A program made the position numbers and the translations under genes. Positions 29,242-46,258 of a DNA stretch of 64,000 nucleotides are shown here, one piece after another. This DNA is from Thermoanaerobaculia bacterium (lineage in GTDB: Bacteria > Acidobacteriota > Thermoanaerobaculia > Multivoradales > UBA5704), in the NCBI GenBank assembly GCA_044226625.1, contig JBGAGQ010000013.1, positions 53,288 through 117,287 of the forward strand, in the 5' to 3' direction. A model generated the notes under the pieces. That model was not told the DNA's origin. It did not search any database and saw only the letters and a program-made list of their open reading frames with translations. Within the stretch, counting starts at the first letter, position 1; the number at the start of each line of letters is the position of its first letter.

Positions 29242-31041
29242 CTACTTCCGACCGCCTTTTTTCTGGTAACCGAACCCCATATGCGGCGTGGCGTTCAGGG
29301 TCAACGTGAGCGTCGCGGAATCTCCACCGGTGGTCGAGACCTTGCCGTAGAGCGGACCGCCGGGGGCGAAATTGTCGGCCGCGATGCGCACCTCATATCC
29401 GCCGAGCTCGTCGACCCCGAAGCAGACCAGGCCGTTCAAATCGGTGCCCCGCGCTGCGGCTGTGCAGGCGGTCCAGTCCGGGCTCGTCCGGTCACCGGTT
29501 CGGGTCGTGGCGAGAACCGCGCCGTCGCTCGGGCGGACGAGCTCGACTCGCACTCCGGCGATTCCGGAATCGGCCGGGTCCAGCCGGCCGACCTTGCCGC
29601 CGTCGGACCAGACGGTGCCGGTCACCACCTCGGCCGAGAGGTCGGGGCAGGCCGGTGCGGTCGGCACGTCGTCGAGATCCTCACCCGGAAGCGGCTCGCG
29701 GGTCGGACGGGTGGCGCAGATCGCGCCGTCCCACAGGACCGGGTTGCCGATGTCCAGGCCCACGATCTTCACCTTCCAGGTTCCGGCCGGCAACGTCGCC
29801 TCGCCGTACACGTGGTCCGCCATCGAAGCGACCGGCGAGGCCGAGCTGGCGATCAGGAACTGCTCCCACTCGTTCGAGCCGGAGGGATTGTCGTCGAAGT
29901 AGGTGTTTCCGAGCGGGTCGGTGACCTCGTAGCGCACGCAACCCACGCCGTTCGGATCGCCGATCTCGCCACGGCGGAGCTCGTCCATCGGGTTGTCGTC
30001 CGGCGGCGATCCGGGTCCCTGCGCGCCTTCGGCGGTTGCCTCATGGGTCACGAACGGGACGCCGTCGTAATCCGCCGCGGTGTCCGGGTCGTCGTCGTCC
30101 GTGCATGCGTCCAGCGAGATTCCCGAGGGATTCGCGACGAGCCCGTCCGTTCCGAAATCGAAGTCGCCGTCGAACGACCGAACCTCGGTCGCGCCCTCCG
30201 CCACCTCGAACGACATCTCGAACGTGCCGTCGTAGCTCACCGGGACCGGCGCCGAGGACGAGACGAGAGATTTCTTTCCGCCCCGATGGACCAGGGCTTC
30301 GTCGTCCACCGTCTGGCAGATTTCCCCCACCAGGCTGAAATGGTCGAGCCGCATCGTCGCCGGGGACGACACCGCAAGCTTGAAGTTGCTCTCCATCGCC
30401 TCGCCCGGATAGCAGTCGCCGTCGCTTTCGACGACCAGGTTGTAGAAGTAGTTCCCGCTCGGCGCTTCCGCCTCGACGGAAGGGGTGATCTCGAGCGACC
30501 ACCAGTCGTTGTCGGCCATCCAGGCCGAGGAGGCGGTCCAGGTCGAGCCCGTGGTGGGGTTCTCGGAGTTGCTGAACCATTCGCCGAGCAGGTTGGCGGG
30601 ATCCATGCTGCCCTGCCGGAGCGGATCGGCGTAGAGGGAGAATTTGATCGGATGGTTTCCGGCGTCCCAGTGCCGCTTGCTGAACACGTCGAAGTTTCCC
30701 GTATCGCCGTCGAACACGTTCAGCGTGAACGTCGTGGTACGTGCCGGAACGCCGAGCGTGATGCGCGGCCGCTGATCGATCGCCTCCGTGCTCGGACAGC
30801 CCAAGGTGAGGAACCGCGCGTCCGTCGTGCTCTGCGAGGGGAACGACGCGAACGGGGCGGTACCTTGTTGCGCCGTGAGGGGAGCGGCGGCGATCAGGCC
30901 GACGATGCCGAGGACCATGAGCGGCGACCTTCGGACTCGGACGGCCCGACGATCTTTGCTGCTCGGGTACGCGCGCTCCTCGGTAGTGCACGACACGCGA
31001 GCGAACCAATTGAAAACCGAAGAATTCCCGAGCTCTTTCAT
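29242..31041 (-). CDS. Secreted acidic protein of unknown family with C-terminal SdrD-B/CnaB-like domain (paralog A)
   Basis: GAGGAG RBS before ATG 31041, signal-like segment, end-to-end similarity to 44489-46258, GTVWSD...SGIAGVRVEL. Confidence 0.8.
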   Translation of the reverse strand: MKELGNSSVFNWFARVSCTTEERAYPSSKDRRAVRVRRSPLMVLGIVGLIAAAPLTAQQGTAPFASFPSQSTTDARFLTLGCPSTEAIDQRPRITLGVPARTTTFTLNVFDGDTGNFDVFSKRHWDAGNHPIKFSLYADPLRQGSMDPANLLGEWFSNSENPTTGSTWTASSAWMADNDWWSLEITPSVEAEAPSGNYFYNLVVESDGDCYPGEAMESNFKLAVSSPATMRLDHFSLVGEICQTVDDEALVHRGGKKSLVSSSAPVPVSYDGTFEMSFEVAEGATEVRSFDGDFDFGTDGLVANPSGISLDACTDDDDPDTAADYDGVPFVTHEATAEGAQGPGSPPDDNPMDELRRGEIGDPNGVGCVRYEVTDPLGNTYFDDNPSGSNEWEQFLIASSASPVASMADHVYGEATLPAGTWKVKIVGLDIGNPVLWDGAICATRPTREPLPGEDLDDVPTAPACPDLSAEVVTGTVWSDGGKVGRLDPADSGIAGVRVELVRPSDGAVLATTRTGDRTSPDWTACTAAARGTDLNGLVCFGVDELGGYEVRIAADNFAPGGPLYGKVSTTGGDSATLTLTLNATPHMGFGYQKKGGRK

Positions 31042-31108
31042 GACCATCTCCTCGAAGCAATTCACGATGGCAAGGTTTTTTGCGATCGCTTGCTGAACCC
31101 CGGACATC

Positions 31109-31123
31109 GCAAGCGGGATGCCA
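31109..31123 (-). promoter_or_regulatory. Sigma54 -24/-12 promoter of paralog A
   Basis: Minus strand TGGCATCCCGCTTGC, exact GG-N10-GC spacing. Confidence 0.8.
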
Positions 31124-31197
31124 CGGGGCACAAGGTCGAGAAAAGGGGGATTCCCCCGGGAAATGCACCGCGATAGGGCGTAACATCGCGTTCGGTC

Positions 31198-31250
31198 GTA
31201 CGGAAATCGGACCTCCGGTCTGGAGACCGGACAGATTCCGGACGCCGGCG
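31198..31250. promoter_or_regulatory. Candidate activator sites (UAS), GTCCG-N5-CGGAC-like
   Basis: GTACGGAAATCGGAC (31198), GTCTGGAGACCGGAC (31218) and a weaker TTCCGGACGCCGGCG (31236). Confidence 0.65.
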
Positions 31251-31376
31251 GGTTTCTGCTATCCAGAATCGACGATAGTGCTATCCTGATGGATGTCGTC
31301 AGCCGAATGACAATGCAGGGCGGGCCCTCGAAGGACCCTGCAGACGTCTCGCCCAAAAGAGGCGGATGGAGTTCGA

Positions 31377-32750
31377 ATGTCCCTTCCCAAGATCCTCATC
31401 GTCGACGATGAACCGGCGGTCCGCGTCGGCACGCGGATCTACCTCGAGGAGCATGGCTACCAGGCGCTCGAGGCTTCCACGATCGTCCAGGCTCGGATGC
31501 TGTTTCAGCGCGAGCGCCCGGATGCCGTGATCCTCGACTACTCGCTGCCCGACGGCACGACGCTCGGCATCCTGGACGAGATGCATTCGATCGATCCCCA
31601 CCTGCCCATCGTCATTCTGACCGGGCATGGGACGATTGACCTGGCAGTTCGGGCGATCAAGGACGGCGCGGAAAACTTCTTGACCAAGCCGGTCGAGCTG
31701 CCCGTGCTTCGAGTCATTTTGGAGAGAGCGCTCGAGAATCAACGGGCGCGCAGACGCCAAGTGGCTCAGACGGCGAACCGGCGCCGTAGCGGCTTTGATC
31801 CGTTCGTCGGAACGAGCAGCGCGATCCACCACTTCTCAGCCGAGGCGCAGTTCGCCCTCCGGTCCGACGGGCCGATCTTGATCCTCGGCGAGACTGGAAG
31901 CGGCAAAGGGGTACTGGCTCGCTGGTTTCACGAGGAGGGCGCTCGGCGTGACGAGTCGTTCGTCGACCTAAATTGCGCGGGTTTTTCCCGCGAGTTCCTC
32001 GAAAGCGAGCTGTTCGGCCACACCCGCGGCGCGTTTACTGGCGCGATTTCGGAAAAGAAGGGCCTTTTCGAGGTGGCGCACAAGGGGACGCTCTTCCTCG
32101 ACGAAGTCGGCGACTTCGATCTCGCCCTGCAGCCGAAGGTTTTGAAGGTGCTCGAGGAGAAACGCTTTCGGAAGATGGGCGAGGTCACCGACCGCGTCGC
32201 GGACGTGTTCCTGATCGCGGCGACCAACCACGACCTCCCGGTGCTCGTGCGGGAAGGTCGCTTCCGCAGCGACCTCTTCTTCCGCATCAGCACCTTCCCG
32301 ATCACCGTGCCGCCTTTGCGCGAGCGGGCCGAGGACATCCCGATGCTCGCCGACCAGCTGCTCAAGCAGCTACGCAGCGATCTGAGCCGTCCCTCTCTTC
32401 GCCTCACCCCCGCGGCCGTCGCCGCGCTCCGTGCCTACCGCTGGCCGGGCAACGTGAGAGAGCTGCGCAACGTTCTCGAACGCGCAGCGCTGCGCGCCGC
32501 CGACGGCGAGATCCAACCGAGCGATCTGAGCTTCGCCAACCTGCAGATGGATCCCACGACGGCGTCTCCCGCAGCGCGGGAGGGCGGAACTCTCGCCGAG
32601 ATCGAGCGGCGCGAGATCGAGCGCGCCCTCACCGAAGAGCAGGGGCGGGTCTCGGCCGCGGCGAAGCGTCTAGGACTCGCTCGAAGCACGCTCTACGACA
32701 AGCTCCGCGAACACGCGATCGATCTCGCGAAGTTCCAGAAGAAGCTTTGA
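31377..32750 (+). CDS. NtrC-family sigma54-dependent response regulator (REC-AAA+-HTH)
   Basis: GETGSGK, ESELFGH, intact GAFTGA, TLFLDEVG, WPGNVRELRN and a Fis-type HTH. Confidence 0.96.
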   Translation: MSLPKILIVDDEPAVRVGTRIYLEEHGYQALEASTIVQARMLFQRERPDAVILDYSLPDGTTLGILDEMHSIDPHLPIVILTGHGTIDLAVRAIKDGAENFLTKPVELPVLRVILERALENQRARRRQVAQTANRRRSGFDPFVGTSSAIHHFSAEAQFALRSDGPILILGETGSGKGVLARWFHEEGARRDESFVDLNCAGFSREFLESELFGHTRGAFTGAISEKKGLFEVAHKGTLFLDEVGDFDLALQPKVLKVLEEKRFRKMGEVTDRVADVFLIAATNHDLPVLVREGRFRSDLFFRISTFPITVPPLRERAEDIPMLADQLLKQLRSDLSRPSLRLTPAAVAALRAYRWPGNVRELRNVLERAALRAADGEIQPSDLSFANLQMDPTTASPAAREGGTLAEIERREIERALTEEQGRVSAAAKRLGLARSTLYDKLREHAIDLAKFQKKL

Positions 32751-32761: not shown

Positions 32762-33850
32762 TCAGGAAGAGATCAGCCGGTTTTGCCCCCGCACCTCGAC
32801 GATCTCCGGCATCCGCGCCAAGAAGACGTCGAGCAAGTCGGGATCGAACTGGGTGCCACGCCCCTCCTCCATGATCCGCGCGGCTTCGCCGTCCGAGAGC
32901 GCCGGCCGGTACGGGCGATCGGAGGTGAGCGCGTCGAATACGTCGACGAGGGCGCAGAGGCGTCCGCCGAGGGGGATGCCCCTTCCGGCCAGACCGCGCG
33001 GATAGCCTGTGCCGTCCCAGCGCTCGTGATGGCTGAGAGCAATCACCTCGCCGGCTTGGAGTAGCTCGGACGACGAATCGGAGAGGATCTGGGCGCCGAT
33101 CACCGTATGGCGGTTCATGATCTCGCGTTCCGCCGGCGTCAAGGGGCCCTCCTTGAGCAGGATCGCGTCCGGGATGCCGAGCTTTCCCACGTCGTGCATG
33201 GGGATGGCATGGCGTAGGACGTCGATCTCGCGATCGGGAAGGTCTAGGGCACGCGCGAGGATCACGGCGTATTGGCTGAGCCTTTGGATGTGCTCGCCCG
33301 TGTAGCGATCTTTGTATTCCGCGGCGACCACCAGGCGACGGATCGTGTCGAGATGGGCGGCGTGCGTGTTGCGTTGTGCCTCGGCGGCCTCGGCGAGCGC
33401 CCGGCTGAGCGCCTCCGTCCTCAGGGCGACCTGACGCTCGAGATTGGCGCGCGCCGCCTTGAGCTCGTCGGAGGTCGCCTTGAGTCGAAGTTGAGACGCG
33501 AGTCTCACGGTGAGCTCGACCGCGTCGATCGGCTTGGCGATGAAATCGTTGACTCCCGTGGCGACGGCGCGAAGCCGATCCTCCCGGCTGTCGAGCGCGG
33601 TCACCAGGATGACGGGCAGCTCGAAGGGATCGACTCGCTCCCGAATGCGCCGGGTGACTTCGAAACCGTCGATGCCAGGCATCAAGACATCGAGGAGGAT
33701 CAGGTCGACGTCGAACGCCACCTCCAGCGCCTCGTTGCCGTCGCACGCCGTGGCGGTCGAGTAACCGAGCGACTGAACGATTTCCTCCATCAGCCGGCGA
33801 TTTTGCTCGCTGTCGTCGACGATCAGGATCTTGGATTCGGGATCCGGCAC
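32762..33850 (-). CDS. REC-HD-GYP cyclic-dinucleotide phosphodiesterase (RpfG-like)
   Basis: Receiver DVLMPGIDG, HDVGK, HHERWDGTGYP and DALTSDRPY. Confidence 0.93.
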   Translation of the reverse strand: MPDPESKILIVDDSEQNRRLMEEIVQSLGYSTATACDGNEALEVAFDVDLILLDVLMPGIDGFEVTRRIRERVDPFELPVILVTALDSREDRLRAVATGVNDFIAKPIDAVELTVRLASQLRLKATSDELKAARANLERQVALRTEALSRALAEAAEAQRNTHAAHLDTIRRLVVAAEYKDRYTGEHIQRLSQYAVILARALDLPDREIDVLRHAIPMHDVGKLGIPDAILLKEGPLTPAEREIMNRHTVIGAQILSDSSSELLQAGEVIALSHHERWDGTGYPRGLAGRGIPLGGRLCALVDVFDALTSDRPYRPALSDGEAARIMEEGRGTQFDPDLLDVFLARMPEIVEVRGQNRLISS

Positions 33851-33922: not shown

Positions 33923-33960
33923 TTGTCCGAGGCTCGGACAAAGTCGTCCAGGTTTCGGAC
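33923..33960. promoter_or_regulatory. Candidate activator sites (UAS)
   Basis: Perfect palindrome TTGTCCGAGGCTCGGACAA (33923-33941) and GTCCAGGTTTCGGAC (33946), 21 bp apart. Confidence 0.7.
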
Positions 33961-34014: not shown

Positions 34015-34029
34015 CGGCATGCTTCTTGC
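34015..34029 (+). promoter_or_regulatory. Sigma54 -24/-12 promoter of the kinase operon
   Basis: CGGCATGCTTCTTGC, GG-N10-GC, ending 42 bp before ATG 34072. Confidence 0.75.
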
Positions 34030-34071
34030 CTTCGACGAAGTCTTTGTTCCTCTGCCGCAAGAGGGCCGATC

Positions 34072-35175
34072 ATGAACTTCGACTTGCCGACGTCGACCTC
34101 GACGGAGCTCGGGCGTGAAAGGGTTTTGATCGCGCTCGGCTCCGGCTTGGCGCATGAGATCAACAACCTCCTTTCGGCCATCATCATGTTGGTCGACCTA
34201 TGGTCCGGCAGGAATTCCTCCGATCGAGACCGCGAGCTGTTGGGAATGGTGGGCGAATCGGCTCGCAAGGGGGTCGCCCTCGTTCGCCAGCTGCACGGGC
34301 TGGCGCGCGCGACCGGGGGCGTATCGACGCCTTTCCAAGCGCGCCACCTGCTGGTGGACGTAGCGCGTTTCGCCGAGGCGGCGTTCGCTCCCCCGATCAG
34401 CGTCGAAGTGGATTTCTCCCCGGACCTCCGGCTGCTCGAGGCCGATCCGATCCCGGTCTACATTGCGTTGCTCGAGCTCTGTCAGATCTCACGCCGGCGC
34501 CTGCCGGCCGGAGGCGTGGTGGCCCTCGCCGTCCGCAACGTCGAGGTCGACGGGTTGGCGGCGGCCATGCGGTCCGGTCTCCTGCAAGGCGCCTATCTCG
34601 CGATCGAGCTGACGGTCGCCGCCGGCTCGGCGAAGGTCTCGGAGGAGGAACGGGCAACGGTCGCCGCATTGGGAGACTTCGCCGAGATCATCGCCGGTGA
34701 AGAATTGGACGAGACCCTCCGCGTCTACTTTCGCGCCGATCGCGAACCGGTCGGGTCGATCGAGCCGGCTCGTTCCGCGATCGCGCGGGTAGGGCACGGC
34801 GAGTTGATTCTGATCGCCGAGCCGTCCGCGATCGTCGGGGACGCGATGGCCCGAGCTCTCGAGGGGCACTCCTATGAAACGCTGATCGCTCGCGACGGCG
34901 CCGAGGCCCTCGCCCTGTTCGCCCGGCATTCCCCCACGGTCGCCCTCGTGATCGTCGGGTCCGGACTGCGCTTCCTCGACGGTCCGGATTGGGTCCTCGC
35001 CGCGCGGCATCTCAAGGAGAACGTGCCGGCGCTGCTCCTTCACGGCGAGGAGGCTTTGCCCGGGGCGGCCGAGCTCGCGCCGAAGGCGCGACTCCTCAAG
35101 AAACCCTTTTCGCTCGCCGACCTGCTCACCGCCGTTTCCGCGAGTCTCGCCTCGGCGAAAACGTTCGGTTCCTAG
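34072..35175 (+). CDS. Degenerate hybrid histidine kinase (H-box kept, ATPase and receiver decayed)
   Basis: GLAHEINNLL H-box, no N/G1/G2 boxes, receiver lacking acidic residues (LIAEPS, VIVGSG). Confidence 0.75.
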   Translation: MNFDLPTSTSTELGRERVLIALGSGLAHEINNLLSAIIMLVDLWSGRNSSDRDRELLGMVGESARKGVALVRQLHGLARATGGVSTPFQARHLLVDVARFAEAAFAPPISVEVDFSPDLRLLEADPIPVYIALLELCQISRRRLPAGGVVALAVRNVEVDGLAAAMRSGLLQGAYLAIELTVAAGSAKVSEEERATVAALGDFAEIIAGEELDETLRVYFRADREPVGSIEPARSAIARVGHGELILIAEPSAIVGDAMARALEGHSYETLIARDGAEALALFARHSPTVALVIVGSGLRFLDGPDWVLAARHLKENVPALLLHGEEALPGAAELAPKARLLKKPFSLADLLTAVSASLASAKTFGS

Positions 35176-35186: not shown

Positions 35187-37118
35187 ATGCCCATCGAAGA
35201 GCGACAGCCGCAGGAAGCCTTTCTCGAAGCCCGGTTCAGCGACCTGTTGGAAGCCGCACCCGACGCGATCGTCATCGTGGGGGCGGACGGTAGGATCGTT
35301 CTGGTCAACGCCCAGGCCGAGACGCTGTTCGGTTATACCCGGAGCGAGTTGATCGGAGGGTCGCCGGACCTGCTGGTTCCTCGGCGTTTGCGCGACCGGC
35401 ATACGCGTCATCGGGCCGCCTATGCGAGAGAACCGAAGCTGCGGCCCATGGGCGCTGGAATGGATCTCTTCGGACTGCGCAAGGACGGTTCGGAGTTTCC
35501 GGTCGAGATCAGCCTCAGCCCGCTCGAAACTGACGAGGGTCTCCTGGTTTTTACCGCGATCCGCGACATCACGGAGCAACGGAATCTCCAGAGGGAATTG
35601 AGCGAGCAGTATCTCAGCCTCCAAACGGCAAACCGTCTGAAGAGCGAGTTCCTCGCGAACATGTCCCACGAGCTCCGCACGCCGCTCAACGCCATCATCG
35701 GCTTCAGCGAGCTGCTGCACGATGCTCGGGTCGGTCCGGTGACGACCGAACAGAGGGAATTCCTGGGAGACATCCTGGCGAGCTCGCGGCACCTTCTACA
35801 GCTGATCAACGACATTCTCGATCTCGCAAAGGTCGAGTCCGGTAGGATCGAGCTTGTTCCGGAGCCGATCGACCTGGGGCCGTTGATCGGCGAAGTGCGC
35901 GACATTCTGAGGACGATGGCCGCGCAGCGCAGGATTCGGATCGAGGTGCATGTAGCCCCGACTCTCACCGGCGTCGTCGCCGATGCCGCGAAGCTCAAAC
36001 AGGTGCTTTACAACTACCTGTCGAATGCTCTCAAGTTCTCTCCTGAGGGGGGCGTCATCGAGGTGCGGGTCCTGCCGGAAGGGACCGAGGAATTGCGGAT
36101 CGAAGTCGAAGACCGGGGAATCGGCATCCAACCGAAAGACATCGACCGGCTCTTCGTCGAGTTCCAGCAGCTGGACGCGAGCACCGCCAAGAAGTTCCAG
36201 GGCACCGGGTTGGGTCTCGCTCTCACTCGCCGCGTCGTCGAAGCGCAGGGCGGCCGGGTCGGAGTCGAGAGCACGCCCGGCGTGGGCAGCGTTTTCTACG
36301 CGGTATTGCCTCGGGTTTCGCCAGGGTCGGCGGATTACCGAGTCGAACCGCCGCCGGTCCAGGACGAAACGAGCTCGCGCCGGTTGTTGGTGATCGAGGA
36401 CGACGAAAACGACCGCGGCTGGCTGGTCCGCACGCTGGCCGACGCCGGGTACTCGGTGGACTCCGCGAGCGACGGTGCCGAAGCACTCCTTCGGTGTTGC
36501 GAGAGGGCCTACGACGCGATCACTCTCGACCTCATGCTCCCCGACATTCCGGGACGAAACGTGCTCCGTGCCGTCCGCGGCGGCGGGCTCAACCGAGGAA
36601 CCCCTGTCATCGTCGTCAGCGTGGTCGCTGAGCAGGGGATCGGACTCAGCTTTCCCGTCCACGACGTGTTCGAAAAGCCCGTACAGGCCGAGGAATTGTT
36701 GGCCTCGTTGAGCCGCGCAGCCGTCAAGCCTGAGGTGCGCCGGCCGGTGCTGGTCGTGGACGACGACGAAACGACTTTGAAGCTTGTCCAAGCGAAGCTC
36801 CTCCAGGAAGGGTACCGTCCGGTCTGCTGCTCGACCGGGCCCGCGGCGCTGAAGGCGGCCGCGGCCGAAATGCCGGCCGCTGTCGTGCTGGACATCGTGC
36901 TACCCGGTATGAGCGGATTCGAGTTCCTGCGGATCTTTCGCTCGACTCCCGAAGGGCGCCATACCCCCGTGATCGTCTGGACGGTCAAGGACCTGGTTCC
37001 TGCCGAACGCGAAGCGCTTCGCGCCTCGACTCGCGTCGTGCTCTCGAAAGGCGACGGTCTGGCGAGCTTGATCCAGGAGATCGAGAGTCTTTTCACGGAA
37101 CCCAAGGTGACATCGTAG
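35187..37118 (+). CDS. PAS-HK-REC-REC hybrid histidine kinase
   Basis: PAS (RKDGSEFPVEISLS), MSHELRTPL, NALKF, GTGLGL and two receivers. AGGAG RBS. Confidence 0.93.
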   Translation: MPIEERQPQEAFLEARFSDLLEAAPDAIVIVGADGRIVLVNAQAETLFGYTRSELIGGSPDLLVPRRLRDRHTRHRAAYAREPKLRPMGAGMDLFGLRKDGSEFPVEISLSPLETDEGLLVFTAIRDITEQRNLQRELSEQYLSLQTANRLKSEFLANMSHELRTPLNAIIGFSELLHDARVGPVTTEQREFLGDILASSRHLLQLINDILDLAKVESGRIELVPEPIDLGPLIGEVRDILRTMAAQRRIRIEVHVAPTLTGVVADAAKLKQVLYNYLSNALKFSPEGGVIEVRVLPEGTEELRIEVEDRGIGIQPKDIDRLFVEFQQLDASTAKKFQGTGLGLALTRRVVEAQGGRVGVESTPGVGSVFYAVLPRVSPGSADYRVEPPPVQDETSSRRLLVIEDDENDRGWLVRTLADAGYSVDSASDGAEALLRCCERAYDAITLDLMLPDIPGRNVLRAVRGGGLNRGTPVIVVSVVAEQGIGLSFPVHDVFEKPVQAEELLASLSRAAVKPEVRRPVLVVDDDETTLKLVQAKLLQEGYRPVCCSTGPAALKAAAAEMPAAVVLDIVLPGMSGFEFLRIFRSTPEGRHTPVIVWTVKDLVPAEREALRASTRVVLSKGDGLASLIQEIESLFTEPKVTS

Positions 37119-37127: not shown

Positions 37128-37508
37128 ATGGCCGGTGAATCGATCCTGATCGTCGACGACAACCTGGTGAACCTCAAGCTGGCGCGCGTTCTCCTCTCCT
37201 CGCACGGTTACGAAGTCCATACCGCGACGAACGCCGAGGACACCTTGGCGTTACTGCGGGCGAGCCGTCCGAAGATGATCGTCATGGACGTTCAACTGCC
37301 TGGGATGGATGGTCTGGAATTGACCCGCCGCCTAAAAGCCGATCCCTCTCTGAAGAGCGTGATCATCCTCGCCGTGACGGCCTACGCGATGAAAGGCGAC
37401 GAGGAAAAGGCCCGCGCCGCGGGCTGCGACGGATACGTCTCGAAGCCGCTCGACACCCGCCGCTTTCCAGTTGAGGTCGCGAGACTTCTTGGAACCACGG
37501 CGGAATGA
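37128..37508 (+). CDS. Single-domain response regulator (DivK-like)
   Basis: ILIVDDN, MDVQLPGMDG and AVTAYAMKGDEEKARAAGCDGYVSKP. Confidence 0.92.
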   Translation: MAGESILIVDDNLVNLKLARVLLSSHGYEVHTATNAEDTLALLRASRPKMIVMDVQLPGMDGLELTRRLKADPSLKSVIILAVTAYAMKGDEEKARAAGCDGYVSKPLDTRRFPVEVARLLGTTAE

Positions 37509-39871: not shown

Positions 39872-41055
39872 CGAGGTCTCAACCGGATCAGAGGGTCGCT
39901 TCCGACGCTTTCGCCCTCGGCGGGTAAGCTGAAGCGGAAGGCGGCTCCGCGGTTGACTTCGGCGGTCGCCCAGACGTGGCCCCCGTGGCGCAAAACGATT
40001 CGGCGCACAAGGGAGAGACCGACACCAGTGCCCTCGAAATCGTCGGCGCGATGAAGGCGCTGGAACACGCCGAAAAGCGCATCTGCCTTCTGCTCATCGA
40101 AACCGACGCCATCGTCTCGAACGACGAAGACTAGGCGTTCACCCTCGTCGCAGCCGCTCACTTCGATCACGGCGCGCTCCTTCTTGGCGGTGAACTTCAA
40201 GGCGTTCGAGAGGAGATTTGCGAACACGTGTTTGAGCAGGGCTCGATCCGAGAAGGCATTCGGCAGCGGGCCCACGCGGATCTCGACGTACCGGCCAGAA
40301 TGCGAACCACGGAGTTCGGAGAGAACTTCTTGGACCAGATCCGTGACATCTACGGTCCGTTTGACGAGAGCCTGTTCGGTGGCCTGCGAGAAGCGGAAGA
40401 GGTCGTCGATCAGGCGGTTCATGCCTTCGGCCGCTCGGACCACCTCCTCTAGATAATCGCGACCGTCTTCGGGGAGGACCGTCGAGTGTCCTCGGATCAA
40501 CAGCCGTGTGAAGCCGATGACGGCTCCCAGCGGGCCGCGCAGCTCGTGAGCTACCGCGCGGGTAAAGGAGTCGAGTTCGCGATTCGCTGCTTCGAGTTCG
40601 TTCGCCCGCTCGTTCAGGCGGCGATGAAGCTCCTCGTTCTCCCGTCGAAGCTTCCGGATTGACAGGGCTCGCCCGAGCACCGGCAAGAGAGCGCTCAGTC
40701 GGAAGGGTTTCAGGATGAAGTCGAGCGCGCCAGCTTTCATCGCTTCGACGGCGTTCGAGATGGTACCCTCGCCGGTCATGATGATTCCGGCCAGGTCCGG
40801 GTCGGAGCGCTGAGCCGCCGCCAGGAGGGCGATACCGTCCATCTCCGGCATCGCCAGATCAGTCAGAAGGAGGTCGAATGCACCGGGCGTGAGGGTGTCG
40901 AGCGCCTCCTGCCCCGACGCGTAGCTCGCGGTCTCGAAGCCCTCGATCTCGAGCGCGTCGCACAGGGCCTTCCGGTGTGCCGCCTCGTCGTCGACGACGA
41001 GGAGCCGGACGATCGGTTTTCGGGAAGGGGAGCCGAAAGGGCCGCCGGCGGACAT
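39868..41055 (-). CDS. REC-HK protein
   Basis: Receiver DLAMPEMDG, AHELRGPL, NALKF and FEGTGVGL. ATG at 41055 just after the upstream stop. Confidence 0.9.
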   Translation of the reverse strand: MSAGGPFGSPSRKPIVRLLVVDDEAAHRKALCDALEIEGFETASYASGQEALDTLTPGAFDLLLTDLAMPEMDGIALLAAAQRSDPDLAGIIMTGEGTISNAVEAMKAGALDFILKPFRLSALLPVLGRALSIRKLRRENEELHRRLNERANELEAANRELDSFTRAVAHELRGPLGAVIGFTRLLIRGHSTVLPEDGRDYLEEVVRAAEGMNRLIDDLFRFSQATEQALVKRTVDVTDLVQEVLSELRGSHSGRYVEIRVGPLPNAFSDRALLKHVFANLLSNALKFTAKKERAVIEVSGCDEGERLVFVVRDDGVGFDEQKADALFGVFQRLHRADDFEGTGVGLSLVRRIVLRHGGHVWATAEVNRGAAFRFSLPAEGESVGSDPLIRLRPR

Positions 41056-41056
41056 T

Positions 41057-44000
41057 TCAGGCCGCACCCGCGCGAAAGCTCTGCAACAAGGTGTCGCGAA
41101 GCTCGCGAATCCTCGGGGGCTTGCTGAGAACGTGGTCGACATGCTGTGGCACGTCTCCTTCTTCCACGAGCCGCTGCCCCCAGCCGGTCAGTAGAATGAC
41201 CGGAGTTGAAGGCGAAGCCAGCTTGACGGCGCTCGCCACCTTGTTTCCGTCGACGTAGGGCATCCCGAGGTCGGTGATGACCACACCGAACGGCTCGCCA
41301 CGCGCCTTTGCGGCGATGAACTCGTCGATCCCCGCCTGGCCCTGGTTCGCGGCGAACACAAGGTGGCCGTCGACTTCCAGGATGTCGCGCAGGGACCGGA
41401 GCAACAACGGATCGTCGTCGACCACGAGGATGCGGAGGCGAGGCGGCACCGACATAGTTGGGGCGGCGGCGGAATCCGCTGACTTCGGGTCGGCCGCGGC
41501 GGCCGCGAACGTCAGGCGGACCGTCGTTCCGACGCCGACCGTGCTCTCGATGCCCAAGTCCGCGCTATGCCGCCTCGCCATTCCGTACACCATCGCAAGG
41601 CCCAGCCCGGTGCCGCGCTCACCCTTGGTGGTGAAGAACGGCTCCATGCACTTTTGCAGAACCTCTTTTGTCATACCGCAACCGGTATCGCCCACCTCGA
41701 GGTAGACCTGCCCTCCTCCGGAGCCGGTTCGGATCAAGAGTTTCCCGCCTTCCGGCATCGCGTCGACCGCGTTGAACACAAGGTTGATCAGGGACTCGCG
41801 GATCTCGCTCTCGACCCCCATGACCTCTGGAAGGTTCTGCTCGAGCTGCGTGTCGAGCTCAATAACGACACCCCGCATTTGCGGCATGTCGTGCCAGCGG
41901 GCGCGTGAGAGGTCGATCACTTGCCGGACCAGCCGATTGAAATCGAGCGAGGCGAGGACGAGCTGTGGCTCGCGTTGTCGGTAAAACTCCCGCATCCGGC
42001 CCACCGTCTGGCCGACGTCTTCGATCGCATGCTGGATCGTCAGTAGGAACTCGCGAGCTCGGACGCTCAAGTTCAGTTCCTGCTCAAGCAACAGCTCAGT
42101 GTAGAGGACCACGGGCGAAATGGCGTTGTTGATGTCATGGGCGATGCCGCTCGCCATCTGGCCGAGCGCCCGCAGCCTCTCTTGTTGCATCACGGCTTGC
42201 TGCGACTGGCGAAGGTCGTCATACGCCTGTTGCAGCGCCGTGTAGAGTTGGGCTTGATGGGCCGCGAGAGCGACGTGCTCGCCGAGCTGTTTGAGGAACT
42301 CGCACTCGCCGCTGTCGAAGGCGTCGGCGGCGGGCCGGGCCGCGACGAAGACGCCAAAAACCATGCTCTCGGCGGCGAGCGGCGCAAAGACGAGAGAGCG
42401 AAGCCCGCCGGCGGCGAGCCGCTGCGGAAATGGGAACGGTACCTGAGTGATGTCTGGCTCGTAGACGAGCCTGCCCGCGATGCATCGAGACAGGCCGTTG
42501 GCATCGACGGCGACGAGTGCCTGCTCGGGTAGCGCCAGGCTGCGGGCAAGAGAATCGCTCTTGACGCCGACCGCAGAGACGGTGAGGGTCCGGTCGGGAG
42601 CATCGTAAAGGCAGAGGCAACAGAAGTCGACCGGCAGGTTGTCCTCGACGGTGCGAATCACCACCTGGAAGATGCTGTGCAGGTCCTGGCGTTCCGAGAT
42701 GGCGCGCGTGATCTGGTTCAAGAGACTGAGTCGCTCGAGCTGGGCGCCGAGCTTCGACTCGGCTCTTTTCCTTTCGGCGACTTCGCTCTCCAGGCTCTTT
42801 GTCGTCTCGACCAGCTCGGCCGTACGCTGTTCGACGCGGATCTCGAGCAGATCGCGCGCCTTCCCTAGAGCTTGGGCCTGACTCTCGATCCTCTCCGCCA
42901 TTGCGTTGAAACTAGTGCCCAGCCGGCCGAGCTCGTCCGGAGGGCCGGCCGCTACCCGGGCGCCTAGATCGCCGTCGGCGATCCTTTCGGTCGCCGCTGA
43001 CAGCGAACGGATCGGTCGCAGGATAAGTGCGGCGAAACCTGCTCCCGCGAGGAGGGCGGCCAAGATGATCGGAGCGGCGACGAGCAGGTGCTCCCGCACG
43101 TGGCGGTCGATCTCGGCCCGAATCGTGACCTCCGGCAGCATGTAGAAGACCGTCCAGGGCACGGACTTGAAGCGGCGGGCGACGCCGTAGTTCCACTTGC
43201 CGTCGACCGGGGCGAAACCGCGAAAGACCCTCGGGTCGGGAGACGGCGAGCGGGAAAGCTCGAACAGCGCGGGAAAGGCCCGCACGTCCGCGAGCAACTC
43301 CCGAGTCTTCGGACCGAATCGCGACTCAGACACGAAGGTCTTGGCGACCGCGGGTTCCACCGCGCCGCCCGGATGGAAGACGATCTCGTCGCTGTAGGTA
43401 TGGGCGATCCGGATTCCGTACTGGTCGAACACGACCGCGAAACTACCCGGACCTGCGAGCGCGTTGGAAGTTTTCATCACGTCCCAAAGCGCCGCGGCCC
43501 GAGCCCAGATCGCGACGAGGCCCCGGACGTTCACCCCTTCCCGGATCGGCTCTAGGTAGGCGATGGTGGGAGCGTCCGCCGCATGAGGCTCGAGGTAGAC
43601 GTCGGAGATTACGGCGGTTCCTTCGAGGGCGTCCCGGACGAAACTATGGAAGGACAGGTCGACGCCGACGAGCTCCTTCTCGGTCGCGGCCACCACGGTT
43701 CCGGTCGAGTCGAGCACCGCCAAGCCGCGAACTCTAGAGTCGACCGCAGGCCTCGCGGCAAGCGTCGCTTCTACCTCCAAGCGAACCCTGTCGCCCGGCA
43801 CGCCTCGGCTGAGCGCCAAGACGCTGGGAAAGCGAGCGAAGCTTTTCGCCGTCCGCTGGATTCCAACGTGGAAAGTGTCCAGCTCGCGGGCCAACTGGTC
43901 GCCCCGGGCGGCCAGTTGGTTCTCGGCATTCGCGACGAGCTCGATGCGAGTCTCGCGGATGTCGAGAGATGCCGAGATGATGAGAGGTAAGAGCGACGCA

Positions 44001-44065
44001 AGCGCCAAGAGTGCCGCGATCTTTGCCCTTAGCGGCCAGCTCGCGACGGGTAGTAAGTACTTCAT
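41057..44065 (-). CDS. Membrane hybrid sensor kinase (Cache-like, HAMP, GAF, HK, REC)
   Basis: Two TM helices around a periplasmic domain, HAMP DELGRLGTSFNAM, GIAHDINN, PFFTTKGERGTGLGL and a receiver. AAGGAG RBS. Confidence 0.92.
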   Translation of the reverse strand: MKYLLPVASWPLRAKIAALLALASLLPLIISASLDIRETRIELVANAENQLAARGDQLARELDTFHVGIQRTAKSFARFPSVLALSRGVPGDRVRLEVEATLAARPAVDSRVRGLAVLDSTGTVVAATEKELVGVDLSFHSFVRDALEGTAVISDVYLEPHAADAPTIAYLEPIREGVNVRGLVAIWARAAALWDVMKTSNALAGPGSFAVVFDQYGIRIAHTYSDEIVFHPGGAVEPAVAKTFVSESRFGPKTRELLADVRAFPALFELSRSPSPDPRVFRGFAPVDGKWNYGVARRFKSVPWTVFYMLPEVTIRAEIDRHVREHLLVAAPIILAALLAGAGFAALILRPIRSLSAATERIADGDLGARVAAGPPDELGRLGTSFNAMAERIESQAQALGKARDLLEIRVEQRTAELVETTKSLESEVAERKRAESKLGAQLERLSLLNQITRAISERQDLHSIFQVVIRTVEDNLPVDFCCLCLYDAPDRTLTVSAVGVKSDSLARSLALPEQALVAVDANGLSRCIAGRLVYEPDITQVPFPFPQRLAAGGLRSLVFAPLAAESMVFGVFVAARPAADAFDSGECEFLKQLGEHVALAAHQAQLYTALQQAYDDLRQSQQAVMQQERLRALGQMASGIAHDINNAISPVVLYTELLLEQELNLSVRAREFLLTIQHAIEDVGQTVGRMREFYRQREPQLVLASLDFNRLVRQVIDLSRARWHDMPQMRGVVIELDTQLEQNLPEVMGVESEIRESLINLVFNAVDAMPEGGKLLIRTGSGGGQVYLEVGDTGCGMTKEVLQKCMEPFFTTKGERGTGLGLAMVYGMARRHSADLGIESTVGVGTTVRLTFAAAAADPKSADSAAAPTMSVPPRLRILVVDDDPLLLRSLRDILEVDGHLVFAANQGQAGIDEFIAAKARGEPFGVVITDLGMPYVDGNKVASAVKLASPSTPVILLTGWGQRLVEEGDVPQHVDHVLSKPPRIRELRDTLLQSFRAGAA

Positions 44066-44141
44066 GCTCCTTCTCTAGATCTCACCCTCAGGGTAACGGC
44101 GGGAACGCCGGTAGGGTGACGGATCGTCGTATCTGCCTTTT

Positions 44142-44170
44142 AGCATAGACCAAATACGTTTTACGCTCAA
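44142..44170 (-). promoter_or_regulatory. Sigma70-like promoter of the membrane sensor kinase
   Basis: TTGAGC-N17-TATGCT in an AT-rich patch. Confidence 0.55.
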
Positions 44171-44301
44171 CATCGAATCCGAGCGGGTCGGATACGGACG
44201 ACCGTGATGTGAGGAGGCGGCCGGGAGATTTCATGCCGTTGAAGGCGATCGATCGCTGCCTCGCCGATAGGCGCGATCCTGTCGGCTTCCGCTTCGAGAT
44301 C

Positions 44302-44337
44302 GTCGGCCTTTCGGAAAGAGTCGTCCGGTTCCCGGAC
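44302..44337. promoter_or_regulatory. Candidate activator sites (UAS)
   Basis: GTCGGCCTTTCGGAA (44302) and GTCCGGTTCCCGGAC (44323), 21 bp apart; a half-site GTCGG lies another 21 bp upstream at 44281. Confidence 0.7.
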
Positions 44338-44371
44338 CTCGAGGGCCATCGTCTTCTCCGACTCTTCGTGA

Positions 44372-44384
44372 AATCAACGACTTG
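44372..44384 (+). promoter_or_regulatory. IHF binding site
   Basis: AATCAACGACTTG matches WATCAANNNNTTR exactly, between the UAS and the sigma54 promoter. Confidence 0.7.
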
Positions 44385-44400
44385 ACTACGCCCTCCGTTC

Positions 44401-44415
44401 GGGCATGCCGCGTGC
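44401..44415 (+). promoter_or_regulatory. Sigma54 -24/-12 promoter of paralog B
   Basis: GGGCATGCCGCGTGC, GG-N10-GC, supported by the UAS and IHF context. Confidence 0.65.
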
Positions 44416-44488
44416 CTTCTACAGGTTTTCGGAAGGCATCCCGCCTCCCCTCGCTAGCTTCGAAAGCTTCTTTTTCAAGGAGGGCGCC

Positions 44489-46258
44489 ATGTCCCTTGAA
44501 CGACAGTTCTATCTTCACGTCATGAGCGGCCTTCGGGTCCGGTCGAGCCGAATCCACGGGCTCGTCTTCGCCTGGATCCTTTTCTCGTTCAGCTCGGTAG
44601 CCGCGTTCGCGCAAGCGGGCACCCCGCCCTTTGCCGCCTTCCCGACGCAGAACCCCACCGATGGACGTTTTCTCGGTTTCGGCTGCTCGGGCCTTTCGAC
44701 CCTCGAGCAGTCGGTCCACCTGACGATTGGCGCGCCCGCGAGCTCGACGACGTTCACCTTGAACGTCTTCGACGGCGAAACCGGCAGGCCGGATTCGAAC
44801 AACAAAGCGCATTGGGATCTCGGGTCCCGGCAGCTCAAGTTCGCCCTGTACGCGGATCCGCTCCGGACAGCCAACACGGACCCCGGCAATCTGATCGGCT
44901 CCTGGGTGGGCAACGGAACGAATCCGACCTCCGGCCCGCTCTGGACCGCGAGCTCCGCCACCATGGCCGACAACGATTGGTGGTCGGTCGAGTTGACGAA
45001 CTCGCCGCTCGCGCTCGCGCCGAGCGGAAACTACTCGTACAACCTGACGATCGGAACCGACGGCTCCTGCAATACCGGCGAGCAGCTGGAGAGCAGCCTC
45101 AAGATCGCGGTCTCGTCGCCCGCCTCGTTCCGCATCTACCACTTCGCCCTCGTGGCCGGTCTGCGCCAGGTCGCCAATGACGTGCCGATCATCTACCCAG
45201 GCTCGACGCCGACCGCCCCCGCGACCGGCAGCTTCCTCACCGCCCCGACGACCTACGACGGAACCTTCGATTTCTTCTTCACCTTGCCGGGTGGCGAATC
45301 GGCCTTGCGCCTGTTCGACGGAGACTTCGACTACGGGACGGGCAACCTCACGGGGAATCCTTCCGGCGTACCGCTCGACCCCTGCGTCGATCAGGACGAT
45401 CCGGACACGCCGGCCGACTACGCGGGCTTTCCGTTCGCGACGCCGGGAGCCAACCCGGAGGGAACACAGGGAGTCGGCGTTCCGCCGGACGACAACTACC
45501 GCGACATCTTCCGCCGGGGCGAGCTGGGTGACCCCGCCGCGGTCGGTTGCGTGCGCTACGAAGTGATGGATCCGGAAGGCAACGTCTATTCGAACGACAA
45601 CCCCTCGGGAAGCTCGGAGTGGGAGCAGTACCTGATCGCGAGCTCCTCCTCGCCCGACGCCTCGATGGCCGACGCCGTCTACTCCGGCGCGACCCTCCCC
45701 TCGGGAATGTGGAAGGTGCGAATCATCGGCCTCGACCTGGCGAACCTGAACCTCTGGTCGGGGGACTCCTGCTCGACGCGTCCCGAGCGTGATCCCCTTC
45801 CCGAAGAAGATCCGTACCTCGTCCCGCGCGTTGCCGCCTGCCCCGACGAGTCGGCCTTCATCCTGGGTGACACGGTGTGGGAAGACGCCGACGGTGACGG
45901 TTCTTTGTCCAGGAAGGAATCGGGAATCCCCAACGTGGCGATGGAGCTCGTGCGGCGGAGCGACGGCGCGGTCGTCGAGACGACGCTCACCGGAGACGTC
46001 CGGAATCCCAACTGGTCCTCCTGCCTCGCCCACAACACGGGCAACGACCTCCAGGGTCTCTACTGCTTCGGGGTCGCGAAAACCGGCGCCTACTTCGTCC
46101 GGGTCGCCGCGTCGAACTTCGCCCCGGGAGGTGCGCTCGAAGGCAAGCTCTCGACGGACGACTCGGCCGACAGCGTTCCGTCGGGCGGCCGGTCGAACGT
46201 GCTTTCCTACCGCTTCGGGTTCCGCGGCGATGGCGTCTCGAGCGTCGAGCTCAAGTAG
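44489..46258 (+). CDS. Secreted acidic protein of unknown family with C-terminal SdrD-B/CnaB-like domain (paralog B)
   Basis: AAGGAGGG RBS, signal peptide ending AFA, GDTVWEDADGDG...ESGIPNVAMEL, paralog of 29242-31041. Confidence 0.82.
   Translation: MSLERQFYLHVMSGLRVRSSRIHGLVFAWILFSFSSVAAFAQAGTPPFAAFPTQNPTDGRFLGFGCSGLSTLEQSVHLTIGAPASSTTFTLNVFDGETGRPDSNNKAHWDLGSRQLKFALYADPLRTANTDPGNLIGSWVGNGTNPTSGPLWTASSATMADNDWWSVELTNSPLALAPSGNYSYNLTIGTDGSCNTGEQLESSLKIAVSSPASFRIYHFALVAGLRQVANDVPIIYPGSTPTAPATGSFLTAPTTYDGTFDFFFTLPGGESALRLFDGDFDYGTGNLTGNPSGVPLDPCVDQDDPDTPADYAGFPFATPGANPEGTQGVGVPPDDNYRDIFRRGELGDPAAVGCVRYEVMDPEGNVYSNDNPSGSSEWEQYLIASSSSPDASMADAVYSGATLPSGMWKVRIIGLDLANLNLWSGDSCSTRPERDPLPEEDPYLVPRVAACPDESAFILGDTVWEDADGDGSLSRKESGIPNVAMELVRRSDGAVVETTLTGDVRNPNWSSCLAHNTGNDLQGLYCFGVAKTGAYFVRVAASNFAPGGALEGKLSTDDSADSVPSGGRSNVLSYRFGFRGDGVSSVELK

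Follow-up and report, generated by a model that had tools for sequence, protein, structure and literature searches.

A signalling cluster that probably switches on two neighbouring secreted-type proteins through sigma-54 promoters in a Thermoanaerobaculia-like genome

In a 64-kb stretch of DNA (the window) from an environmental Thermoanaerobaculia-like genome (Acidobacteriota), Pfam searches and a paralogue alignment revealed eight signalling genes between two outward-pointing paralogues of secreted type, secA and secB, which together span positions 29242–46258 (Table 1) and of which the latter two are 53% identical over 578 residues. This gene content agrees with an earlier note on the same DNA, which had described twin secreted proteins bracketing an NtrC-type activator (bEBP), a REC-HD-GYP protein, a degenerate kinase, three hybrid kinases, a REC-kinase and a lone receiver.

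Table 1. Genes and putative regulatory elements of the cluster, in window coordinates.
Feature	Position	Strand	Remarks
Intrinsic terminator-like hairpin 3′ of secA	29122..29147	-	11-pair stem (10 G-C), then CTTTTTCGTC
secA	29242..31041	-	599 aa, secreted-type; N-terminal all-beta domain, weak SdrD_B-like C-terminal domain
secA -24/-12 sigma-54-type promoter	31108..31123	-	TGGCATCCCGCTTGCG; GG 81 nt before ATG
Tandem palindromes, putative activator sites	31198..31232		GTACGGAAATCGGAC, GTCTGGAGACCGGAC; 1 mismatch each, 20 bp apart
NtrC-type response regulator / sigma-54 activator (bEBP)	31377..32750	+	Pfam
REC-HD-GYP response regulator	32762..33850	-	Cyclic-dinucleotide phosphodiesterase type; Pfam
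Tandem palindromes	33925..33960		GTCCGAGGCTCGGAC (0 mismatches), GTCCAGGTTTCGGAC (1 mismatch), 21 bp apart
Relay-operon -24/-12 sigma-54-type promoter	34015..34030	+	CGGCATGCTTCTTGCC; pattern match
Pseudo-kinase, candidate histidine phosphotransferase	34072..35175 (long ORF from 33913)	+	DHp His kept; ATP-binding domain and receiver degenerate
PAS-HisKA-HATPase_c-REC-REC hybrid kinase	35187..37118 (long ORF from 34989)	+	Pfam
Single-domain receiver	37128..37508	+	REC 9.1e-27 (Pfam)
REC-PAS-PAS-HisKA-HATPase_c-REC hybrid kinase	37505..39871	+	CckA-like H-box; Pfam
REC-HisKA-HATPase_c kinase	39868..41055 (or start 41142)	-	Pfam
Membrane hybrid kinase	41057..44065	-	TM-periplasmic ~290 aa-TM-HAMP-GAF-HisKA-HATPase_c-REC; Pfam and hydrophobic segments
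Tandem palindromes, one strong, one weak	44302..44337		GTCGGCCTTTCGGAA (2 mismatches), GTCCGGTTCCCGGAC (0 mismatches), 21 bp apart
secB -24/-12 sigma-54-type promoter	44401..44416	+	GGGCATGCCGCGTGCC; weaker, quasi-palindromic; GG 87 nt before ATG 44489
secB	44489..46258	+	589 aa, secreted-type; N-terminal all-beta domain and SdrD_B domain

The only DNA-binding domain that Pfam detected in the cluster belongs to the activator, which combines REC, Sigma54_activat (1.4e-56), AAA_lid_14 and HTH_8 domains. Its sequence contains the receiver Asp54, a Walker A motif (GETGSGKG) and, at residues 218–223, the intact GAFTGA motif that the earlier note had reported; no NCBIfam equivalog reached its cut-off. 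The window does not include rpoN, so that sigma-54 in this genome is implied only by the GAFTGA activator. The REC-HD-GYP protein (HD_5, 6.3e-36; REC, 1.5e-26 in Pfam) retains both motifs intact, HD at 219 and GYP at 282.

The pseudo-kinase aligns end to end with the 37505–39871 kinase; its N, G1 and G2 boxes and the receiver Asp are gone, and its H-box (LAHEINNLL) is retained. Pfam recognized HisKA alone (27.7 bits) plus a weak REC, and no HATPase_c even at E ≤ 10; NCBIfam gave weak matches to CckA (1e-19) and ChpT (7.6e-4), both under cut-off. That pseudo-kinases can act as phosphotransferases is established, according to the portion available of PMC9981736. Since the cluster encodes three hybrid kinases, none of its ten proteins has an Hpt domain (Pfam, E ≤ 0.01), and the pseudo-kinase kept its histidine but lost the ATP site, we regard it as a likely phosphotransferase. 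The 37505–39871 kinase itself scored 413.6 bits against NCBIfam CckA, below the 1000 cut-off. The ATG of the 35187 hybrid kinase lies 9 nt after an AGGAG that overlaps the preceding stop codon, and the candidate ATG 41055 of the REC-kinase follows the upstream gene's stop codon by 1 nt. In the membrane kinase, hydrophobic segments at residues ∼11–35 and 323–350 flank the periplasmic part. For its earlier description as Cache-like, Pfam returned no match in the periplasmic part even at E ≤ 10; the description draws on language-model features, which resembled dCache_1 clusters (0.98), and on the two hydrophobic segments.

Each of three intergenic regions contains a −24/−12 element of the form GGCAT-N6-TGC. 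The less strict pattern GGCAY-N6-TGC occurs eight times on the two strands of the window, versus 3.06 ± 1.81 expected, and the secA, relay-operon and secB promoters account for three of these eight, with the pattern itself at 31109–31122 (−), 34016–34029 (+) and 44402–44415 (+). Each of the three points to its gene, 43–74 nt 5′ of the start codon. The secB element is the weak one: it fits the full consensus at 4/7 non-core positions, with GTGC at −12 and the T missing at −26, and the minus strand gives a match too. The relay-operon promoter falls inside the long ORF starting at 33913, and the true pseudo-kinase start is therefore most likely ATG 34072, after AGAGGG. Translation of secA would begin at ATG 31041, 6 nt after GAGGAG, and that of secB at ATG 44489, after AAGGAGG. 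A strong terminator-like hairpin follows secA, which argues for a monocistronic transcript. On its other strand, each region leads into the activator gene, the REC-HD-GYP gene or the membrane kinase/REC-kinase pair, respectively, none of which has a −24/−12 element.

All three regions also carry pairs of GTCCG-N5-CGGAC palindromes ∼60–110 bp upstream of the −24/−12 elements, on the side away from the gene start. Relative to the promoter GG, they are at −110 and −90 for secA (31198/31218), −91 and −70 for the relay operon (33925/33946), and −100 and −79 for secB (44302/44323). The common promoter-plus-palindrome architecture claimed earlier for three divergent regions was thus found in all of them, weakly as regards the secB element. 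A scan of the whole window allowing ≤ 1 mismatch yielded 11 palindromes versus 10.9 by chance, but these were clustered: the three regions, 979 nt in all, hold five of the 11, and the remaining 63,021 nt hold six (Poisson P = 5.4e-8).

Because three promoters share one architecture and the activator is the sole DNA-binding protein of the cluster, the most economical reading is a local sigma-54 regulon of secA, secB and the four-gene relay operon; the signalling cluster probably switches on its two neighbours through these promoters. We infer that the activator binds the palindromes and that transcription depends on RpoN. Phosphorylated on Asp54, the activator would assemble as dimers on the tandem sites, two helical turns apart, and turn on the three promoters from this upstream position. 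Two of them would yield monocistronic secA and secB, and the third an operon of pseudo-kinase, PAS hybrid kinase, single receiver and REC-PAS hybrid kinase. By driving the relay operon, the third promoter would let the switch reinforce part of its own input (positive feedback). The constitutive part would presumably consist of the activator and the REC-HD-GYP protein, together with the membrane dCache-like kinase and its REC-kinase partner. The pseudo-kinase would probably transfer phosphoryl groups, ChpT-style, from the hybrid-kinase receivers to the activator, and the REC-HD-GYP protein would provide a second output by lowering a cyclic dinucleotide. That the relay starts with the Cache kinase and ends on the activator is pure conjecture. 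Cell-exterior functions are typically tied to sigma-54, as stated in the part available of PMC3162934.

SecA and SecB belong to an uncharacterised family. Both begin with a hydrophobic segment followed by A-x-A/Q, and this pattern and its conservation in the family alignment predict secretion. The two are old paralogues, in which an acidic-loop-rich head of two beta-sandwiches would sit on an SdrD-B-like stalk domain. The SdrD_B score was above the 29.7-bit cut-off for SecB (38.9 bits) and below it for SecA (21.4 bits); the region matched PDB 10ps at 1e-11, and SdrD and UafA were its top Foldseek matches. The all-beta N-terminal domain (∼410 residues) had no relative in Pfam, NCBIfam or PDB; for the SecB model of this domain (pLDDT 91.7), the best Foldseek probability against the PDB was 0.25–0.5, with TM ≤ 0.2. 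Species-representative genomes contained 287 relatives, some of 2,102–2,486 aa with the same head and 7–10 SdrD_B repeats, an arrangement that suits a head borne on a stalk. The likeliest role that we can suggest is that of calcium-binding adhesins, with an adhesin-like head carried by a stalk, or of matrix proteins.

For comparison we kept 80 of the 287 relatives, representing 71 loci, and searched up to 10 kb of flank per side (tblastn, E ≤ 1e-3). A sigma-54 AAA+ domain occurred at 0/71 loci and an HD-GYP domain at one (L056). The tandem pair was found in 0/88 homologue upstream regions, a single palindrome in 6/88 versus ∼5 by chance, and sigma-54-like matches were at background level (∼0.39 per 510 nt). 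Such signs were absent even at the relatives with which secA groups most closely (L004:8246, L005:10001 and L006:10001; tree support 1.0). The linkage to bEBP and HD-GYP genes and the shared upstream motif that the earlier note looked for in homologues therefore did not materialize; its dedicated switch holds within the window, as the most economical local regulon, but not as a conserved system. Rather, relatives lacking activator and motif indicate that the sigma-54 wiring is lineage-specific. The regulator with which the family shows conserved linkage is a ∼770-aa BTAD + AAA_16 activator, encoded at 37/71 loci, usually divergently and directly upstream of the family gene; at four loci (L004, L005, L008, L011) the gene lies near a GAF-HisKA_3/REC-GerE pair. 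This is a local rewiring, the relatives using a different regulator. Taken as a whole, a lineage-specific sigma-54 regulon is the reading that we hold with moderate confidence.

The activator has relatives in ∼70 clusters at 61–68% identity, and none was seen near a secreted-family member beyond the window's own contig, so this lineage normally has other targets; for one relative (P0082), a contig shared with a family locus (L035) is a candidate, the activator lying outside the fetched 17 kb. The widespread occurrence of the activator lineage away from the family is also what one would expect if a mobile or recently inserted module had split an ancestral secA-secB tandem, its own regulatory motif spreading to the edges, the secreted proteins being passengers and the main output lying in distant targets or in the second-messenger branch of the HD-GYP protein. 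In favour of this, L004, L005 and L006 each have two family genes, one of them A-type, side by side in the same orientation, and secA groups with the A-type genes as their orthologue-like sister (support 1.0); the G+C content of the cluster is also lower, at 0.61–0.65, than the 0.66–0.72 of the flanks. For the pseudo-kinase a single near relative emerged (P0180, 43%); it is a candidate for the same contig as an activator orthologue (P0089), to which contig no listed secreted-family member could be assigned. However, that linkage is indirect, secA and secB each have their own promoter and tandem sites rather than read-through from the cluster, and there was no sign of a transposase, integrase, tRNA or flanking repeat; we consider such an insertion unlikely.

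The GGCAT-N6-TGC elements could, alternatively, be fortuitous and secA and secB be read by a sigma-70- or ECF-type holoenzyme, as their homologues presumably are; the palindromes would then be bound by a regulator whose gene lies elsewhere, or serve the activator to autoregulate the divergent signalling genes only. This would suit the weak secB element and the homologues, which lack both motifs and accompany other regulators, and all three pairs lie in divergent regions, so that the opposite-strand genes could equally be served; but the correct placement and orientation of three of the eight matches, the lack of sigma-70-like promoters in 28900–46700 (a crude consensus scan, and Acidobacteriota promoters may differ) and of a BTAD-AAA_16 homologue in the window make it quite improbable.

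The local sigma-54 regulon that we favour appears ordinary in kind when set beside known systems such as Syp/SypG and PrsK/PrsR, whose logic its architecture matches, even though the earlier note had not recognized it. [quoted passage not shown] As in that account, several hybrid kinases would converge via a phosphotransfer step on a receiver-bearing NtrC-type activator, which would turn on sigma-54 promoters of its own locus for a surface or matrix product (PMC10162802). Here, in contrast, the output would be two secreted proteins instead of a polysaccharide, the phosphotransferase a separate pseudo-kinase instead of an HPt domain, and an HD-GYP receiver is present; homology is limited to generic domains, and relatives do not share the wiring. 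A shared upstream sequence, the 'Syp enhancer', reportedly figures in the title of Ray et al. 2013.

PrsK/PrsR offers a second parallel: its NtrC-type sigma-54 activator controls secreted, RpoN-dependent PEP-CTERM proteins without known biochemical function that are tied to aggregation (PMC9850573 and PMC1569441, as far as available), and PEP_resp_reg (TIGR02915) tops the NCBIfam matches of our activator, albeit at 343.7 bits against a cut-off of 502.6 and hardly above NtrC (340.9). Unlike PEP-CTERM proteins, SecA and SecB have neither a PEP motif nor a membrane helix at the C-terminus, and no exosortase was seen in the window. With SdrD and other MSCRAMM adhesins they share the SdrD_B domain, and relatives place several B repeats behind the same head; yet this head does not resemble the MSCRAMM A region, the LPXTG anchor is absent and the host belongs to a diderm lineage. 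The use of a pseudo-kinase as phosphotransferase recalls the CckA-ChpT concept (PMC9981736, same portion). The likely acceptor here is a sigma-54 activator rather than CtrA, and the pseudo-kinase differs from ChpT in its score (19 bits on the ChpT model, cut-off 225) and its extra degenerate receiver; but, as in CckA-ChpT-CtrA/CpdR, a DHp-plus-degenerate-CA protein adjoins CckA-like hybrid kinases, with the common H-box AH(D/E)(F/I)NN.

We read the stretch from 29242 to 46258 as a genuine and clearly marked local regulon whose kind is already known, and its outputs belong to an uncharacterised protein family. Ten genes lie in it (table), and Pfam matches together with motif inspection bore out the gene list that the earlier note had drawn up. 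Curated NCBIfam models all scored below their own cut-offs on the eight signalling proteins, which are therefore generic two-component proteins; nine receivers occur in the cluster. The activator carries a receiver (Response_reg, 1.2e-23) in which D10, D11, D54 and K104 can be read from the sequence, an AAA+ domain (PF00158, 191.2 bits) with GAFTGA at 218-223 and a Walker A motif GETGSGKG, and a C-terminal Fis-type HTH (HTH_8, 1.7e-11). With putative sites upstream of its candidate promoters, this build is that of an NtrC-type bacterial enhancer-binding protein (bEBP), a class whose sites are expected some 80-150 bp ahead of -24/-12 promoters; rpoN was not among the genes of the window. Likewise, the REC-HD_5 protein (HD_5 124.1 bits, REC 93.1 bits), with HD at 219 and an HHERWDGTGYP motif ending at 284, reads as an HD-GYP response regulator of the RpfG type.

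The evidence that ties these genes together lies in the intergenic regions upstream of secA, of the operon opened by the degenerate kinase, and of secB. The core GGCAY-N6-TGC occurs eight times on both strands of the window (expected, 3.06 +/- 1.81), and three of these matches each face a gene start, the ATG lying 81, 56 and 87 nt past the GG that starts the element (43-74 nt past the element). Allowing one mismatch, the palindrome GTCCG-N5-CGGAC is present 11 times, as many as chance predicts across the window, but 5 of the 11 fall within the 979 nt that the three regions span (Poisson P = 5.4e-8). They form tandem pairs spaced by 20-21 bp, at -110/-90, -91/-70 and -100 (weak)/-79 from GG, and these pairs, 60-110 bp upstream of GG in all three regions, are the putative activator sites. 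The shared layout of promoter and palindromes that the earlier note had described for three divergent regions was thus present in each of them, and from their sequence and placement we regard these cis elements as real. The promoter at 34015 falls within a long ORF that opens at 33913, so that the ATG at 34072 is the most likely start codon of the degenerate kinase. A strong hairpin-plus-T terminator follows secA.

The secB element (44401-44417) is weak, with GTGC at -12, and quasi-palindromic. Its reverse strand, GGCACGCGGCATGC, is also a -24/-12 core match and is aimed at the membrane kinase operon; under that reading the palindromes would sit downstream of the promoter. Between the palindromes and the activator gene start, a direct repeat (TGCTATCCAGA / TGCTATCCTGA, 22 bp apart, 31257-31289) might serve as a further operator or belong to the promoter of the activator gene itself. 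Single palindrome-like sites with one mismatch each were seen at 53863 and 56579 in other intergenic regions, and one GGCATAGTCTTTGC within the REC-PAS-PAS-kinase-REC gene at 37680-37693. We rejected all three as marks of further regulon members in the window, each being without the combination of promoter and tandem sites. The leaders showed no riboswitch or other RNA element, as no Rfam model reached its gathering score in the window, and the window holds no tRNA.

Features of the sigma-54 cluster, its flanks and the compared loci (L numbers are loci around relatives of secA and secB in species-representative genomes; positions without a prefix are those of the window)
Feature	Position	Strand	Basis or remark
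secA	29242-31041	-	secreted family
NtrC-type activator	31377-32750	+	Pfam REC, Sigma54_activat (1.4e-56), AAA_lid_14, HTH_8
REC-HD_5 protein	32762-33850	-	Pfam; HD and GYP motifs intact
Degenerate kinase	34072-35175	+	Pfam and motif inspection
PAS-kinase with two receivers	35187-37118	+	Pfam
Lone receiver	37128-37508	+	Pfam
REC-PAS-PAS-kinase-REC protein	37505-39871	+	Pfam
REC-kinase	39868-41055	-	Pfam
Membrane kinase with HAMP, GAF, kinase core, receiver	41057-44065	-	Pfam
secB	44489-46258	+	secreted family
-24/-12 core element, secA	31109-31122	-	GGCAY-N6-TGC
-24/-12 core element, degenerate kinase	34016-34029	+	GGCAY-N6-TGC
-24/-12 core element, secB	44402-44415	+	GGCAY-N6-TGC
BTAD + AAA_16 gene	L001:1378-3693	-	33 further loci beyond these four
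BTAD + AAA_16 gene	L002:7402-9717	-	
BTAD + AAA_16 gene	L003:506-2752	-	
BTAD + AAA_16 gene	L009:7422-9773	-	
A-type gene and second family gene	L004:8147-11710	one strand	tandem
A-type gene and second family gene	L005:9995-13133	one strand	tandem
A-type gene and second family gene	L006:9959-13167	one strand	tandem
Long ORF opening with head	L001:3984-11444		2,486 aa
Long ORF opening with head	L003:5100-11408		2,102 aa
Long ORF opening with head	L002:10070-16621		
Long ORF opening with head	L003:11816-17524		
Long ORF opening with head	L009:9995-13813		
Genes directly downstream of secB	46457-50512	+	three proteins
Ser/Thr protein kinase gene	11496-14057		flank
Ser/Thr protein kinase gene	21345-23972		flank
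Ser/Thr protein kinase gene	50540-53134		flank
ECF-type sigma factor	17365-18024		flank

How phosphoryl groups might reach the activator is suggested by the degenerate kinase. Three of the ten proteins are hybrid kinases, and none of the ten contains an Hpt domain at E<=0.01 (Pfam). Over its full length the degenerate kinase can be aligned with the CckA-like REC-PAS-PAS-kinase-REC protein (24% identity), and it keeps the H-box histidine, H28 (LAHEINNLL; HisKA, 28 bits); in the same alignment it is without the N, G1 and G2 boxes, HATPase_c gave no Pfam match even at E<=10, and its receiver has lost the acidic pair and the acceptor Asp. Its sequence has a ChpT-like build, with a DHp domain that retains its His and a CA-like domain that lacks the boxes for ATP binding. 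By profile it does not belong to the ChpT family itself (NF046025, 19 bits where the cut-off is 225, E = 7.6e-4), though the protein may still work like ChpT. Given the kept His, the lost ATP boxes, the lack of Hpt domains and the precedent of pseudo-kinases such as ChpT, which are described as histidine phosphotransferases (PMC9981736), we propose that it would act as a phosphotransferase, shuttling phosphoryl groups to the activator. At the sensory end, the membrane kinase carries a domain of ~290 residues flanked by two hydrophobic segments. The earlier note had called this kinase Cache-like; the periplasmic domain matched no Pfam family, Cache included, at E<=10, but by Atlas language-model features it resembles dCache_1 clusters (0.98; 10 of the 10 best matches in one clan), so that the label is plausible. 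The only near relative of the degenerate kinase in the protein collection (P0180, 43% identical, 360 aa) and an orthologue of the activator (P0089, 66%) both come from contigs of 53,440 nt, which hints that the signalling module is present elsewhere without the secreted genes.

To place the outputs, we surveyed the relatives of secA and secB. The protein collection holds 56 cluster representatives, unnamed or called 'SdrD B-like' and mostly from Thermoanaerobaculia/Acidobacteriota MAGs; the closest (P0004-P0007, 63-68%) lie on metagenome contigs. Species-representative genomes yielded 287 relatives, also in Holophagales, Chloroflexota and Armatimonadota, of which 80 were kept, corresponding to 71 loci with flanks of up to 10 kb on each side. 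The earlier note had asked whether homologues stay linked to such regulators and share the upstream motif, and neither held. Within these flanks (tblastn, E<=1e-3), a sigma-54 AAA+ domain was found in 0/71 loci and an HD-GYP domain in one (L056). The upstream scan covered 88 regions in 70 loci (L048, whose match starts at query residue 99, was omitted): the tandem palindrome pair was found in none of the 88, a single site in six (~5 expected), and sigma-54-like matches stayed at background level, with only L014 and L064 scoring at least 6, far upstream. Relatives of the activator form about 70 clusters at 61-68% identity. Beyond the window's own contig, an activator relative and a family member share only one contig size, 69,638 (L035), where the activator lies outside the 17 kb fetched.

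Instead, the conserved and usual partner of the family is a regulator of ~770 aa with BTAD and AAA_16 domains (Pfam), present in 37/71 loci; among the 34 loci that lack it, 10 are covered by under 3 kb on the upstream side. In 33 loci its gene lies at most 1.5 kb upstream of the family member, divergently in 28 and on the same strand in 5. The window contains no such gene. A GAF-HisKA_3 kinase and a REC-GerE regulator were seen a few kb off in L004, L005, L008 and L011.

The two secreted proteins are 53% identical over 578 residues, and each opens with a hydrophobic segment followed by an A-x-A/Q-type site. Their sole Pfam match is SdrD_B near the C-terminus, at 38.9 bits in secB against a cut-off of 29.7, and at 21.4 bits, under the cut-off, in secA. 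A first model of the whole protein was mediocre (pLDDT 70.8), its Foldseek matches concerning the B domain only. When residues 44-455 of secB were folded by themselves with 87 rows, the result was a confident model of an all-beta head (pLDDT 91.7, pTM 0.91), predicted to be a double beta-sandwich. Foldseek found nothing convincing for this head in the PDB (best probability 0.25-0.5, TM <= 0.2); the weak matches are two-jelly-roll proteins, namely viral major capsid proteins, PNGase F and peptidylglycine monooxygenase. A sequence search of the PDB with the family profile matched only the SdrD B domain, and the head had no Pfam, NCBIfam or PDB relative. A likeness to LipL32 (Atlas clusters 0.90, 162 shared features; Foldseek probability 0.54) was too weak to use. 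Invariant residues of the family are mostly Asp, Asn, Gly and Trp, in the motifs DGDFD.GT, DDPDT, PPDD and NPSG..EWE, and the alignment has no invariant His or Cys; this pattern is more in keeping with a structural or binding domain that takes up calcium than with a hydrolase. Ten SdrD_B repeats follow the head in L001 and seven in L003, which is the head-on-stalk layout of adhesins. Long ORFs opening with the head recur in several relatives (up to 2,486 aa; table), and these two, the ones scanned for domains, also carry CarboxypepD_reg-type domains.

Among 87 head domains placed in a tree, secA falls together with members at L004:8246, L005:10001 and L006:10001 (support 1.0); secB takes the basal position in a 16-leaf clade. 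In these three loci an A-type gene, sister to secA, has a second family gene immediately after it on the same strand. These separate positions rule out a recent duplication of the 'twins', and together with the tandem pairs in L004, L005 and L006 they argue that secA and secB are old paralogues that lie adjacent in relatives. In the window, 13.4 kb of signalling genes separate the two, which point outward. G+C in the cluster (30000-46000) is 0.61-0.65 as against 0.66-0.73 in most other parts of the window (overall range, 0.59-0.73), and no mobility genes lie near it.

The logic of the cluster matches that of two known systems. In the Syp system of Vibrio fischeri, four hybrid kinases and an HPt step feed a sigma-54 response regulator, SypG, that acts on its own locus (PMC10162802), and PrsK/PrsR governs RpoN-dependent PEP-CTERM proteins (PMC9850573, PMC1569441). 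The activator did not qualify as PrsR (TIGR02915, 343.7 bits against a cut-off of 502.6), and a PEP-CTERM tag on secA or secB was rejected, no C-terminal hydrophobic segment being present. The regulon also fits the general tie of sigma-54 to the cell exterior put forward in PMC3162934. With SdrD and other MSCRAMM adhesins, secB shares the B-type repeat, secA falling below the cut-off; membership was rejected since the head model has no match to the SdrD A region, which binds ligands through IgG-like folds, and the sequences of secA and secB contain no LPXTG. Our literature search on sigma-54 in Thermoanaerobaculia found nothing related.

The regulatory part adds little that is new, multi-kinase-fed sigma-54 activators of cell-exterior genes being well known. 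The value of the locus lies in the outputs, a sizeable secreted family from poorly studied soil phyla with a confidently modelled head that lacks database relatives, and in the family's usual private activator having been swapped in the window for one of another class. Because the cis elements are so clear, the locus, which comes from a non-pathogenic environmental organism, would be a convenient handle on when proteins of this family are made. A further reading, which we consider rather unlikely, is that the head defines a new structural class of secreted acidic-loop proteins, probably calcium-binding, in Acidobacteriota, Chloroflexota and Armatimonadota, each gene standing under its own dedicated activator, mostly of the BTAD-AAA_16 STAND type and in the window a sigma-54 phosphorelay. 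The product would then be so costly or dangerous that it has to stand behind a private on-switch, as might an adhesin induced by contact or by a signal, an aggregation factor or an antagonistic effector, and the window would show a regulator replaced in nature while its output stayed the same.

Around the cluster, the genes directly downstream of secB encode a DUF5122 beta-propeller protein (474 aa) and two related proteins of 450 and 421 aa, about 26% identical and with no Pfam match; the 198-nt gap after secB contains a weak hairpin. The stretch 56175-59813 has a G+C of 0.59-0.62; only one of its ORFs (56981-57796) passes the filter on third-position G+C, and it also holds several short overlapping ORFs. 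The flanks further carry three genes for Ser/Thr protein kinases and one for an ECF-type sigma factor (table); L001, L002 and L009 likewise have a kinase gene close to the BTAD regulator.
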